Source of the DNA: Sulfolobales archaeon | GTDB taxonomy: Archaea > Thermoproteota > Thermoprotei_A > Sulfolobales > NBVN01 | NCBI GenBank assembly: GCA_038841535.1 | Contig: JAWBTQ010000019.1 | Span: forward strand, 1 to 23,132 | Length of the DNA: 23,132 nucleotides | Reading direction: 5' to 3' | In this document: positions 184 through 23,132 of the stretch, piece by piece | Numbering within the stretch: position 1 is the first letter of the stretch | Layout: each line of letters begins with the position of its first letter | Notes under the pieces: generated by a model | Told to the model about the DNA's origin: nothing | Seen by the model: the letters and a program-made list of their open reading frames with translations, nothing else | Databases searched by the model: none | Translations under genes and position numbers: made by a program

Positions 184-1284
184 TTGAGCGCTGCTCTTGT
201 TGTAGTGAGAGAGCAGGATGTAGCTGAAGCTTTAGAGCTAGCTAGAGTGCTCTACAATAGAGTTGATGTAGTAAAGCTCCCAAATAGGTATAGGGTTTCT
301 ACATCAACTTACCTCACACCTAAGTGGCTGAGGTTAGTTCAAGACAAGTTAAAAGAAGGCCGTTTTGATAGAGTCTATGTCTACGACGTTCTTAGTCCTA
401 GACACGTAAGCTACCTTATTAAGGAACTGAAGGTCCTAGTTGAAGATAGAGTTATGCTGATACTCAGCGTTCTAGCTGAGCACGCGGGTTCTAAGGAAGC
501 TAAGATACAGATCGAGATGGCTAGACTTAGACACCAAATACCCCTACTTAGGGATTGGATAAACAGAGCTAAACTGGGTGAATTACCCGGCTTTCTAGGT
601 CCAGGTGGGTACGCTGTCGATGCTTACTACACGCACGTGAGAAAAAGAGTGAGTAAGCTGCGCAAAGAGCTTGAGAGACTCCGAAAAATCAAAGACTACG
701 AGAGAGGAAAGAGGGAGGAGAGAGGTTTAGTCCACGTCGCAATAGTGGGATACACGAATGCTGGAAAAACTACGCTGTTTAATGCTCTAACCGGTGAAAA
801 CAAGGCTACAGGTCCGGAGCTGCTAACAACGACTTCGACGAAGGCTAAAATGGTGCCTCTCGGCGAGCTTAAGGTGGTCTTCATAGACACGATAGGCTTC
901 ATAAAGGACATTCCACCTGAAATAGTTGAGGCGTTCTACGCTACTCTAAAGGAGATCTCAACGTCGTCTGCCGTTATACTTGTTATGGACATCTCCGATA
1001 GAGAGGAAGTCTTCAGTACCAAGCTTAAAGAATCGCTAAAGATACTAATAAACATAGGGTACGTCGGTAGACCACTCGTTGTAGCTCTAAACAAGCTAGA
1101 CCTCGTTGATACCCCTAGTGTAGTTAAACTAAGGTCCCTTATTGAGCCAGAATTAAACTGCAGTTTATGGTCTTACAAAGTAGTAGAAGTCTCAGCGCTA
1201 AAGGGAATAAACCTTGGAGGACTTAAAAACACCCTACTCGATGCCTTGAAGAGCTCGGAAACCATTACAGGGGTTCAGCTCTGA
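184..1284 (+). CDS. hflX: GTPase HflX
   Basis: HAGSKEAKIQIEMARL, GPGG, G1 GYTNAGKT, G3 DTIGFI, G4 NKLD, G5 VSA; TTG start directly after the mbf1 stop. Confidence 0.95.
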   Translation: MSAALVVVREQDVAEALELARVLYNRVDVVKLPNRYRVSTSTYLTPKWLRLVQDKLKEGRFDRVYVYDVLSPRHVSYLIKELKVLVEDRVMLILSVLAEHAGSKEAKIQIEMARLRHQIPLLRDWINRAKLGELPGFLGPGGYAVDAYYTHVRKRVSKLRKELERLRKIKDYERGKREERGLVHVAIVGYTNAGKTTLFNALTGENKATGPELLTTTSTKAKMVPLGELKVVFIDTIGFIKDIPPEIVEAFYATLKEISTSSAVILVMDISDREEVFSTKLKESLKILINIGYVGRPLVVALNKLDLVDTPSVVKLRSLIEPELNCSLWSYKVVEVSALKGINLGGLKNTLLDALKSSETITGVQL

Positions 1285-1304
1285 TGTAGGTTTATATCGG
1301 TTGT
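1274..1304 (-). repeat. Element end repeat, downstream of tnpB
   Basis: Minus strand ACAACCGATATAAACCTACATCAGAGCTGAA versus 2721-2751 ACAAGCGAAATAAACCTATATGAAAACCGAA. Confidence 0.7.
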
Positions 1305-1400
1305 CTTCACCGCCTCATCTCTTTCCCCCGCATTGGTCTTGGGTATGCATCACCCTTGGGGGTGTTCAGGGCGACCCCTAGCACCCCACATCTTGTGTAT
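1274..1400 (-). ncRNA. Putative TnpB omegaRNA/reRNA scaffold overlapping the tnpB 3' end
   Basis: Established location for TnpB guide scaffolds. GC-rich stem 1359-1364/1382-1387 (GGGGTG/CACCCC) with an inner AGGG/CCCT stem lies in the tail after the last RuvC Asp. Boundaries are inferred. Confidence 0.55.
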
Positions 1401-2518
1401 CTGTAGAACAGGTTGATACATGCAACCACGTCTCTATCTCCTGTGAATCCACATCTACTGCATCTCAGTACTCTACTACTGTTGTCCTTCAATCTGCTTC
1501 CACACCTGGGGCACGTGGATGACGTCTTTCCTGGGTTAACGTATCTAGCTACAAACCCTCTTTCTAAAGTCTCATAGCTTATGGTGAACTGTATTCTCCT
1601 ATAGAACCACAGGGATAGCTTCTTGTTGAGTGAGCTACCACCGTTGACTCTATCCCTCAGATGGTTCAAGTCTTCCAGCACTACAACAGCTCCATACCTA
1701 CTGGCTATCTCTGCTGCTCTATCGCCCAGCTTGTGAGCATAATCCCAAGCTATGCTCCTTATTCTCTCACCATGTCTTCTAATCGCTCTTCTAACACCCC
1801 CGATGAACCTCCAGGACCTCGAATACCTCTTCTGAATTCTCTCAATCCATATCCTGTGGGTTAGGATTCTCCTGAGAGGTGTTTTGAACTGCTTTAGCTT
1901 CAGCAACTCCCCACTTAGTGCGAAAACAGCTAGTGTAACGTTGTCGAAGTTAACGTCTATGGTCATAACGGTTCTGGTTCTCCTTGGTTCAACTGTTTTC
2001 CTGGAGTATACCGCTACGTAGACCTCGTTCTCAACAACCTTCACAGCTATCTCGTAGTTACTCCAACCCCTGAACTTCTCTACTCTTTCGTTAGATGTTA
2101 GTAGTCTCAGCTTAACCTCTCTACCATTGTGTATCTTTAGGATAAGCGTCCTATCCTTTAGATCAAGCTTGTAGTCGTACTTATCTACTCTAGCTGTTAA
2201 CCTCCTTAGAACTGGCTTCCTACCACCGTTCTGCCTACTAGCTCTAACAACTGCTTTAGCGTACACGTAGATCTGCTTTACGTGGTGTGCTCTAAAACCA
2301 CGATTTCTTAGCTCTGAGTAGAACATTCTGTGTAGAGCTTTAATTGAAGGTACCTCATTTAAACTCCACAACCTGTCTATCGCTAGCTGGACAGCATCAC
2401 GGTAGAGCTTCAGAAACTCAATTAATGCATCACGGTCATCGCTACCCTCGGGGAGAGCCCTCATCTTAAGAGCCTCAACAAGCTCTCCACCCCTCACCGA
2501 GTAACTCACCACATCCAA
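1307..2518 (-). CDS. tnpB: RNA-guided endonuclease TnpB
   Basis: RuvC-I TIDVNFD, RuvC-II VVLEDL, YVNPGKTSSTCPRCG...CSRCG zinc ribbon, RuvC-III DRDVVACINL. All three acidic catalytic residues are present. The true start may be a GTG 2-3 codons downstream. Confidence 0.95.
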   Translation of the reverse strand: MDVVSYSVRGGELVEALKMRALPEGSDDRDALIEFLKLYRDAVQLAIDRLWSLNEVPSIKALHRMFYSELRNRGFRAHHVKQIYVYAKAVVRASRQNGGRKPVLRRLTARVDKYDYKLDLKDRTLILKIHNGREVKLRLLTSNERVEKFRGWSNYEIAVKVVENEVYVAVYSRKTVEPRRTRTVMTIDVNFDNVTLAVFALSGELLKLKQFKTPLRRILTHRIWIERIQKRYSRSWRFIGGVRRAIRRHGERIRSIAWDYAHKLGDRAAEIASRYGAVVVLEDLNHLRDRVNGGSSLNKKLSLWFYRRIQFTISYETLERGFVARYVNPGKTSSTCPRCGSRLKDNSSRVLRCSRCGFTGDRDVVACINLFYRYTRCGVLGVALNTPKGDAYPRPMRGKEMRR

Positions 2519-2532
2519 GATTCTAGAGTTTA

Positions 2533-2547
2533 GTTTATAATCTTTCT
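2533..2547. promoter_or_regulatory. Probable bidirectional TATA box between tnpB and the small ORF
   Basis: TTTATAA on + (2534-2540) reads TTATAAA on the minus strand, where it is preceded by purine-rich BRE-like GAGAAAGA. It lies in the 56-nt gap between two divergent ORFs. Confidence 0.55.
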
Positions 2548-2574
2548 CTCCATTATCTGTATAGGTGGATATAC

Positions 2575-2718
2575 ATGGCTAGAATCGAGCTGGTTAGATG
2601 CAGCGTTATAAAGTACAGAAGAGGGGATCACTTTCTCTACCCGTTGGGAAGAGACAAAGAGAAGATAAAACATCTCCACGGAAAAGAAGTATACGTACTA
2701 ATCGTAGCAGAAGAATAG
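2575..2718 (+). CDS. 47-aa basic protein inside the TnpB element, possibly AbrB/DUF2080-like DNA-binding
   Basis: MARIELVRCSVIKYRRGDHFLYPLGRDKEKIKHLHGKEVYVLIVAEE*. SD AGGTGG 6 nt before the ATG and a TATA box upstream. Below the ORF-track size cutoff. The fold is a guess from the GKEVYVLI tail. Confidence 0.7.
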   Translation: MARIELVRCSVIKYRRGDHFLYPLGRDKEKIKHLHGKEVYVLIVAEE

Positions 2719-2720
2719 CA

Positions 2721-2751
2721 ACAAGCGAAATAAACCTATATGAAAACCGAA
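2721..2751 (+). repeat. Element end repeat, downstream of the small ORF; inverted relative to 1274-1304
   Basis: 24/31 nt identity, shared core ATAAACCTA. Confidence 0.7.
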
Positions 2752-3122
2752 ACAGCTGCGTTAGGCGCACGTATTAAAACGGGACAAGCCGCCTGCTAGT
2801 AAACCTCCGAATTAAATCACGACAAGTCGAATAAGCTGGAGTAGCTACTTAAAGGATCGGGCTACCATACCAGTTTATATTGGTTACCGCATTACCTCGC
2901 TCATTCTCTTTCACTGTTCGTGCTCTACCGGGCTCGGAGTCCTTGAGGACAACCCACCTACGTCTCAAGCTTTTATGACAGCCACTCATCAAGTACAGTC
3001 TGCCGAGCTATCACCTTCAGCAAGCACTGGAGAAATTGTATTAGTTGAGAAACCCCGGTATCGCTAAGGCTTTAAGCTTTGGTATATAAAAAGATATAGA
3101 GGCGATACTGGCGGGAGCGCTA

Positions 3123-3755
3123 GTGTTTGAGATCGGTATTTCTTGCAGGCTTAGAACAGGTGATATGGAGTATCTAGCTATGAAGACACACGAGCTACTT
3201 AGAGAGCTCGGAACGTCGGAGCTTGATACTGTTTACTTCTCTGAGGTGGTCGGGTCCGTCGGTAATGCCTCCGTCGCTCTCTATCTATCGAAGTCTAACA
3301 TAGGTGTTCTAGTAGTTGCTTCTGCTTGTGATGACGAGAGTAAGTGCCTTATTGGGCCAGTTAGAGAGATAGCTAATGTATCGAGGAGGATACTTAAGAG
3401 GTTAGGGGACCTCATAGAATTACTCAAAGTGGATTACGTAGTTAAAGCTAAGTTAACACTATCAACTGCCCACCGCAACATAGTGAAGTACTTAAAGATG
3501 GGTGGTGTAGAGGTGTCAGATGGAGGTAGTTACGATGCTGGCTGGTATAACGTTAAGATGTATAAGGGTAGGTACATTGTCTCTATGAAGAAGCTGGACG
3601 TAGTCATCACTCTAGTCCAGGAGAAGACCGGTGGCTTAGTTAGTGCCCAACTAACAGTCTCTAGATCACAGCAGGGAGCGTGCGAGCCCGCTGAGGAAGA
3701 ATTCGTCGACTGCCTTAAGGCTGTTTCTCAAATAATTGCTCACTTATCTAGCTAA
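3123..3755 (+). CDS. Hypothetical protein
   Basis: 210-aa ORF with a TATATAAA box at ~3083; no motif recognised. Confidence 0.75.
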   Translation: MFEIGISCRLRTGDMEYLAMKTHELLRELGTSELDTVYFSEVVGSVGNASVALYLSKSNIGVLVVASACDDESKCLIGPVREIANVSRRILKRLGDLIELLKVDYVVKAKLTLSTAHRNIVKYLKMGGVEVSDGGSYDAGWYNVKMYKGRYIVSMKKLDVVITLVQEKTGGLVSAQLTVSRSQQGACEPAEEEFVDCLKAVSQIIAHLSS

Positions 3756-22840: not shown

Positions 22841-23132
22841 CATGAAAACAGAGAGGTTAAGCTAAGACTACTGACATCTACTGAGAGAATAGAGAAGTTT
22901 AGGGGTTGGAGTAACTACGAGATAGCTGTGAAGGTAGTTGAAGACAAGGTCTACGTAGCAGTATACTTCAGGAGAGCGGTTAAACCGAGGAGAACTAGAA
23001 CAATCATGACTATCGACGTTAACTTCGACAACGTTACACTAGCTGTTTTCGCACTAAGTGGGGAGTTGCTGAAGCTAAAGCGGTTCAAGACACCACTCAG
23101 AAAGATACTAACCCACAGGATATGGATCGAGA
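22841..23132 (+). pseudogene. tnpB: 5'-truncated second tnpB copy running off the window
   Basis: Frame 2 reads HENREVKLRLLTSTERIEKFRGWSNYE...MTIDVNFDNVTLAVF...HRIWIE and aligns to residue 130 onward of the first TnpB (32 mismatches in 283 nt by hand count, ~89%). In-frame TAG at 22817-22819. Not in the ORF track. Confidence 0.88.

Follow-up and report, generated by a model that had tools for sequence, protein, structure and literature searches.

Cas12 descends from TnpB elements, which are also a source of compact genome editors, and the control of these elements within the cell is only starting to be studied. The termini of IS607 elements are unrelated to each other, with an imperfect inverted repeat lying nearby at different distances and with short repeated motifs, and GG is found at the termini and in the target without target duplication (Chen et al. 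2018). In CboIStron, a clostridial IS607 element, the transposon-adjacent motif (TAM) is TGGG and the right end (RE) terminates in TCGG, with discrimination at position -3 (Zedaveinyte et al.). In bacterial IS605 elements the small protein Arc is encoded opposite tnpB, often divergently, and binds and represses the shared intergenic bidirectional promoter (Moon et al., bioRxiv 10.64898/2026.09.24.754181). A ribbon-helix-helix (RHH)/MazE-TnpB clade of archaea is, by its published description, immobile, carries a rearranged catalytic site and has tnpB following a small gene in the same direction (Altae-Tran et al. 2023, PNAS). Here we examine a 23,132-nt stretch of DNA from a Sulfolobales archaeon (contig JAWBTQ010000019.1, positions 1 to 23,132; hereafter the window) that contains a tnpB gene paired with a divergent micro-gene of 47 amino acids (aa). 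Our reading, held with moderate confidence, is that positions 1270-2766 are one copy of a transposase-less, non-autonomous insertion sequence family of thermophilic Thermoproteota with IS607-type ends, dependent on a helper serine TnpA, in which TnpB re-cuts donor sites and the micro-protein acts as a regulator.

Extent and mobility of the element

A TnpB protein query against genomes sampled at one per species yielded 51 loci. All belong to uncultured Thermoproteota, among them Ignisphaera, Desulfurococcaceae and Sulfolobales; since the best identity among them was only 82%, the window's own genome is not part of this set. Full-length relatives aligned to the window by blastn from position 2766 down to 1266-1270, and when the window and 20 full-length copies were aligned with MAFFT, conservation began at 2766 and ended at 1270. 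All 21 full copies measure 1,474-1,521 bp, and their flanks are unrelated at every locus. Given these common end points and unrelated flanks, the element comprises window positions 1270-2766 (1,497 bp, minus strand, which is the sense strand of tnpB). A preliminary description, made from the sequence of the window, had drawn the element at 1274-2751 with a pair of inverted repeats as its termini; these boundaries have to be moved outward, and the repeats are subterminal. The same description had allowed for relatives that end before 2575 or lack the repeat at 2721-2751, and the copies instead pass 2575 and keep that repeat.

Read along the tnpB sense strand, the element opens with GCC and closes with AACCCC, each kept in 20 of the 21 copies. 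The family pattern of the left end (LE) is GCC followed after 7-8 nt by CTGTTT, and that of RE ends CAGAGCTGAACCCC; among 31 matches to the LE pattern, GCC stands at the aligned first position in 25 and is one base off in 3 more. The base preceding LE is A in 13 of the 21 copies, C in 5, T in 2 and G in 1, and the base following RE is T in 13. No flank repeat longer than 2 nt was present at the insertion in any of the 21 full copies, and no target duplication was seen. The many copies in different sites, together with miniature derivatives of ~280 nt, demonstrate that the element is mobile. That it is a distinct TnpB element without a transposase gene, as initially proposed, agrees with the open reading frame (ORF) list and with Pfam, neither of which yielded a transposase ORF between the ends. 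Searches of phage, archaeal-virus and plasmid records with TnpB (tblastn) gave only partial matches of 26-37% identity and no annotated copy of the element.

TnpB and its predicted guide RNA

The tnpB gene (1307-2518, minus strand) encodes a predicted RNA-guided nuclease of 403 aa with an intact RuvC triad and zinc finger. Both Pfam PF07282 (Cas12f1-like TNB domain) and NCBIfam TIGR01766 (IS200/IS605 accessory TnpB-related domain) were matched above cut-off, and guided_TnpB scored 89 bits. Residues D188, E282 and D363, as well as C336, C339, C353 and C356, are invariant in all 20 aligned TnpB proteins, and by these residues the nuclease is active-looking, with a canonical catalytic site.

Conservation is highest in the final 125 nt of the element (1394-1270). 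An alignment of 42 sequences defines here a predicted guide RNA (omegaRNA) scaffold at 1270-1394 on the minus strand, overlapping the last tnpB codons and RE, with five helices in which 89.9% of cells are paired, compared with 78.6% in shuffles, and 57 cells carry double changes, compared with 21.2. None of 500 shuffles reached the pairing or the double-change value, and slid controls attained at most 55%; in 27 sequences one of the proposed pairs (columns 50-66) does not hold. This covariation demonstrates a structured RNA, the putative guide RNA, encoded at the 3' end of tnpB. Rfam gave nothing at gathering thresholds over the whole window and only noise at E<=10 over positions 1150-3150. 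If the scaffold is the expected omegaRNA, the guide would be the 16-20 nt of DNA past position 1270, which belong to the host gene hflX; the predicted guide segment (1250-1269, minus strand) starts just past RE, lies in flanking host DNA inside the hflX 3' end, and would match hflX itself. A transcript leading outward from LE was considered as a second guide RNA and dropped, as the scaffold helices are absent on the LE side.

The tnpB stop lies 37 nt from RE in the window. Among 15 intact relatives this distance is 5 nt in 8, 45 nt in 3, 37 nt in 1, and 12, 22 and 50 nt once each, because frameshifts in the RNA-coding stretch shift the stop. The C-terminal tail of TnpB (1307-1394 in the window, and its counterpart in the relatives) varies in length through these frameshifts, and it is the RNA, not the protein, that selection seems to act on here. 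Separately, a 7-bp inverted pair, GGAGAGC/GCTCTCC (2452-2458 and 2482-2488), lies within the first 25 codons of tnpB; its arms are almost invariant in 20 copies and are retained in the miniature derivatives. With arms so nearly invariant, no covariation was found between them in the 20 copies, which bears neither way on a role in RNA.

Element ends

LE (2719-2766, minus strand) consists of 48 non-coding nt, opens with GCC and holds GTTT/GGTT motifs. Two repeat arms of 31 nt, complementary at 24 of 31 positions (77%), are located at 2721-2751, 15 nt inside the LE terminus, and at 1274-1304, 4 nt inside the RE terminus. Within the family the repeat is subterminal, at 4 nt from RE and 15-16 nt from LE, and the termini themselves are unlike. 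The preliminary description had each arm follow a stop codon by 2 nt, which is correct for the window copy (gaps 1305-1306 and 2719-2720), and had taken this as the mark of a symmetric module. The layout is maintained on the micro-gene side, where the stop is 48-50 nt from the LE terminus in 20 of 20 copies, and fails on the tnpB side, because the tnpB stop changes position between relatives.

In the 23-kb window taken alone the repeat is unexceptional, with unrelated pairs of 32 nt at 75% and of 29 nt at 72% among 119 pairs. Comparison of the two terminal 70-nt stretches gave an inverted score of 27, where 300 shuffles averaged 13.7 and peaked at 25, and an inverted match occurs at the same place with p<=0.02 in 17 of the 21 full-length copies (L014, L015, L017 and L021 miss this threshold); the ends compared in direct orientation scored low. 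At loci L031-L033 both arms have switched to another, nearly identical sequence, with the distances of 4 and 16 nt and the GCC and AACCCC termini unchanged. Since both arms change together in these loci, they evolve in concert, which would fit a single factor reading both ends. Folding the two ends as single-stranded DNA, on either strand, produced no stable hairpin (z from +1.41 to -1.17): LE has a minimum free energy of -2.1 kcal/mol and folds worse than shuffles (z +1.41), and RE has a z of -1.17.

Taken at the sequence level, this end pattern fits the IS607 type and not the IS200/IS605 type. As in the IS607 family (IS607, IS1535, ISC1926, CboIStron), TnpB is accompanied by an omegaRNA predicted to read out across RE, unrelated termini are associated with an imperfect inverted repeat and short motifs (here GGTT/GTTT) at unequal distances, and the same dinucleotide is present at both ends without target duplication, in this case CC (GG on the other strand) in the 21 copies. 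The idea of an IS607 derivation, raised in the preliminary description, is consistent with these unequal subterminal repeats, with the shared terminal dinucleotide and with the lack of duplication and of hairpins (Chen et al. 2018). Unlike the IS607 family, the present element has no tnpA, and the slot is taken by a divergent 47-aa gene of no known family.

Several of these observations would also be expected of an ordinary tnpB-only element of the IS200/IS605 IS1341 group, in which a Y1 TnpA moves single-stranded DNA and the inverted repeat is idle in transposition. Elements of this group are likewise non-autonomous, typically show no target duplication, and have an omegaRNA overlapping the tnpB 3' end, as in ISDra2-type elements, with short derivatives that keep the ends and the RNA; TIGR01766 is matched above cut-off, and the leading GCC could be target or adjacent motif lying outside the element. 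Such an element is nevertheless difficult to reconcile with ends that form no stable (subterminal) hairpin at either side or on either strand, with an LE-RE likeness that is inverted rather than direct, with identical CC at both termini, and with arms that co-change between clades, pointing to one factor that binds double-stranded DNA, and we consider this explanation unlikely. The conserved inverted repeats also recall elements that a DDE transposase mobilises by their terminal inverted repeats, such as DDE-associated TnpBs, whose ends are symmetric and for which inverted terminal repeats have been reported (Altae-Tran et al. 2023). DDE transposition, however, normally leaves a flank repeat, and one of at least 3 nt is found in 0 of 21 copies; furthermore, the repeats lie 4 and 15-16 nt inside ends that differ from each other, making this the least credible of the explanations considered here.

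The divergent micro-gene

The micro-gene (2575-2718, plus strand) encodes 47 aa and is directed away from tnpB toward LE. The two genes are separated by a divergent promoter gap of 56 nt (2519-2574) with one palindromic TATA box, TTATAA, at 2535-2540, and the initial account of tnpB and a 47-aa ORF diverging around a single such box stands in both its ORF coordinates and its box. No other TATA-like box is suitably spaced from the two starts; TTATAA is exact in 16 of 21 aligned copies, and we infer that it serves both directions. A Shine-Dalgarno-like GGTGG is located at 2564-2568, and a GGTG-type core is kept 6-7 nt ahead of the start in the aligned copies. Whether the start of the micro-gene (about 2559-2574) contains the repeat motif a third time was considered, and this was rejected, as diverged copies keep just the GGTG ribosome-binding core.

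The small accessory gene that had been proposed to occupy the TnpA slot is real and conserved: its ORF is intact in 20 of the 21 aligned copies, and tblastn places it upstream of tnpB on the opposite strand in 27 of the 32 loci with a tnpB 5' end. At L038 the micro-gene is decayed and contains a stop; at L027, L028 and L030 tnpB is a frameshifted relic and the micro-gene is absent; and L036, with a TnpB 39% identical to that of the window, has a different gene in the slot. The micro-gene persists in the L031-L033 clade (TnpB 47% identical) at 43-47% identity. Its indels are multiples of three. The ratio of non-synonymous to synonymous change (dN/dS) was estimated from a set of 24 sequences, five of which were dropped for indels or N-terminal extensions, leaving 19 of equal length; pairs with a proportion of synonymous differences (pS) of 0.05-0.6 were usable. 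Across the 67 usable pairs of 171, median pS was 0.46, the median proportion of non-synonymous differences (pN) 0.069 and median dN/dS 0.10, and the ORF frame is the sole frame stop-free in all 19 sequences. By these substitution patterns the 47-aa ORF is a genuine gene under strong purifying selection.

Family and predicted fold of the micro-protein

A profile search among proteins of 25-91 aa returned 216 clusters at E<=1e-3; the best 120 of the 216 are of 43-75 aa, and are nameless or called 'hypothetical protein', none of them with a precomputed Pfam domain. When 1.84 billion representatives were searched exhaustively with a profile, 41 were found, which are small except for P0139 (1,554 aa, nine short repetitive matches), considered as a fused form and regarded as spurious. 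NCBIfam gives the micro-protein no name, the ESM Atlas holds unnamed clusters only, and in the full-text literature searched we found no description of this family or of such a layout in archaea. As far as sequence comparison can tell, the 47-residue family is an orphan, tied to the transposon, with neither a Pfam family nor a relative of solved structure.

Two AlphaFold (AF2) models, with predicted local distance difference test (pLDDT) scores of 83.6 and 88.0, begin and end with long strands and place a short helix near residue 27. Top TM-scores (0.52-0.56) were obtained with designed homodimeric small beta-barrel proteins of ~45 residues at non-significant E of 8.7-10, and a half-barrel that might dimerise is a lead from these models. 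The beta-alpha-alpha ribbon-helix-helix fold of Arc is not seen in these beta-rich models, and RHH Pfam matches number zero in 179 members. AbrB/MazE (SpoVT-AbrB, PF04014), a family of swapped-hairpin dimers and the identity first considered, is unsupported by the profile tests as a family membership and stays a lead; P0149 has a sub-threshold MazE_antitoxin match (E=0.022, 15.1 bits against a cut-off of 24.7), the only one of the 179 members to do so. Co-folding of TnpB with the micro-protein gave a score of 0.00 against a mark of 0.32, which weighs neither for nor against binding.

The micro-protein and TnpB might alternatively form a toxin-antitoxin-like or inhibitor pair, in which the micro-protein targets TnpB or its RNA and not the promoter. 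Tight co-inheritance, seen in 27 of 32 loci and still at 47% TnpB identity, would be expected of such a pair, the weak MazE_antitoxin match of P0149 points the same way, and pairing has been proposed for the small AbrB/MazE or RHH genes beside archaeal tnpB (Altae-Tran et al. 2023). The present element resembles that RHH/MazE-TnpB clade in having an archaeal tnpB beside a very small, putatively DNA-binding gene, and is set apart from it, by the clade's description, in three respects: the family is plainly mobile, its catalytic triad is canonical and not rearranged, and its genes diverge and so form no operon. As 178 of the 179 members are in addition free of any MazE or RHH signal, we find a pair of this kind quite improbable.

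Miniature derivatives and locus L036

Matches to RE only (blastn) proved to be miniature elements of ~275-283 nt without either gene: the opening ~50 nt of LE are followed by the TATA region, ~75 nt from the start of tnpB, the 125-nt scaffold and RE. They are present in several genomes, at L046 (2861-3142), L047 (2868-3142), L048 (2864-3142) and, twice, at L049 (2842-3124 and 4537-4818), as well as at L005, L037, L050 and L051. Their scaffolds are 86-94% identical to that of the window, compared with 76-83% for full copies. The spread of these gene-less miniatures implies that ends and an expressed guide RNA suffice in cis, and that the micro-gene is trans-acting, if it acts at all.

At L036 the slot ahead of tnpB (which starts at 2968) is occupied by a co-directional gene (2767-2961, plus strand) for a 64-aa HTH_17 protein. 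Its top NCBIfam match is to the N-terminus of IS607 transposase, at 29.6 bits against a cut-off of 110, and by this resemblance it may be a truncated transposase working as a regulator.

Proposed mechanism

In the mechanism we propose, a serine-type TnpA encoded elsewhere would bind the subterminal repeats and exchange strands at CC, mobilising the element in trans. The omegaRNA would be transcribed with and past the tnpB 3' end across RE, such that flanking host DNA becomes the guide, and TnpB with omegaRNA would re-cut emptied donor sites beside a predicted GCC-type adjacent motif. The element itself would be spared, RE reading CCCC at the place of the adjacent motif; the difference between GCC and CCC also falls at position -3, paralleling CboIStron. 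The micro-protein would repress the divergent promoter, as Arc does in bacterial IS605 elements, or, alternatively, might bind the end repeats. It is most likely a small regulator, probably dimeric and binding nucleic acid. Arc is its closest functional analogue, being likewise the product of a tiny accessory gene opposite tnpB across a short intergenic region. The present system differs from it in its archaeal host, in having no neighbouring tnpA, in the beta-rich predicted topology and in the lack of any Pfam relation, and repression is here proposed by analogy.

Several observations weigh against a helper-dependent IS607-type element with a regulatory micro-protein. No TnpA of any kind was matched in the window or in the 51 loci, by a crude motif search that used a serine-recombinase catalytic pattern (0 hits) and did not extend to whole genomes. 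No empty target site was recovered, leaving GCC and CC assignable to element or target. The shared dinucleotide on the tnpB sense strand is CC, compared with the GG published for IS607, and the IS607 leaning of the protein is weak, TnpB scoring 45.8 bits with IS607_TnpB and 30.5 bits with IS200_TnpB, far under the respective cut-offs of 350 and 425 bits. The miniatures have spread without the micro-gene in cis. For the micro-protein, Pfam gave nothing relevant in 178 of the 179 members scanned, profile searches of the PDB were empty or noise, Foldseek with the two models found no PDB match at E<1, and the predicted topology, beta-beta-alpha-beta or beta-alpha-beta, is unlike the ribbon-helix-helix of Arc.

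A further possibility is that the element is transposase-free in a stricter sense, with the micro-protein binding and pairing the end repeats and TnpB with its guide RNA making the DNA breaks. It would be compatible with the lack of TnpA near the 51 loci, with a micro-gene conserved like tnpB and with the concerted arms. We rate this as highly improbable; if true, the two-gene unit would represent a new mechanistic kind of mobile element, RNA-guided and self-sufficient.

Host gene and neighbouring features

The host gene, an hflX-type GTPase (184-1284, plus strand), is interrupted at its 3' end by the element, which provides its last five codons and stop (1270-1284). An uninterrupted orthologue, P0158 (371 aa, 87% identical), has a longer tail, and the insertion replaced the last codons of the gene; read across the element in silico, hflX would be of 372-373 aa. 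The hflX tails of the window and P0158 are too diverged to assign GCC to target or element. The same truncated end is found in a database protein 99% identical to that of the window (P0157). On the other side of the element, 356 nt (2767-3122) separate it from the next gene (3123-3755), which is without a Pfam family; this interval resembles none of the fetched loci and yielded neither a convincing ORF nor an Rfam match. A second, 5'-truncated copy of tnpB (22841-23132, plus strand) runs off the end of the window and has neither LE nor micro-gene. Over 283 nt it is 89% identical to positions 1840-2122, with homology setting in at about 22841-22850 and the first ~130 codons missing.

Implications

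The family offers a TnpB from thermophilic archaea whose guide-RNA scaffold is defined and whose adjacent motif is predicted to be of G/C type. It also provides a naturally occurring example of replacement of the TnpA slot in an IS607-like element, and the occurrence in L036 of a slot holding only the DNA-binding domain of a transposase hints at how such elements become helper-dependent and self-limiting. What Arc solves in bacterial IS605 elements may have been solved here independently, by a micro-protein that is not of RHH type.

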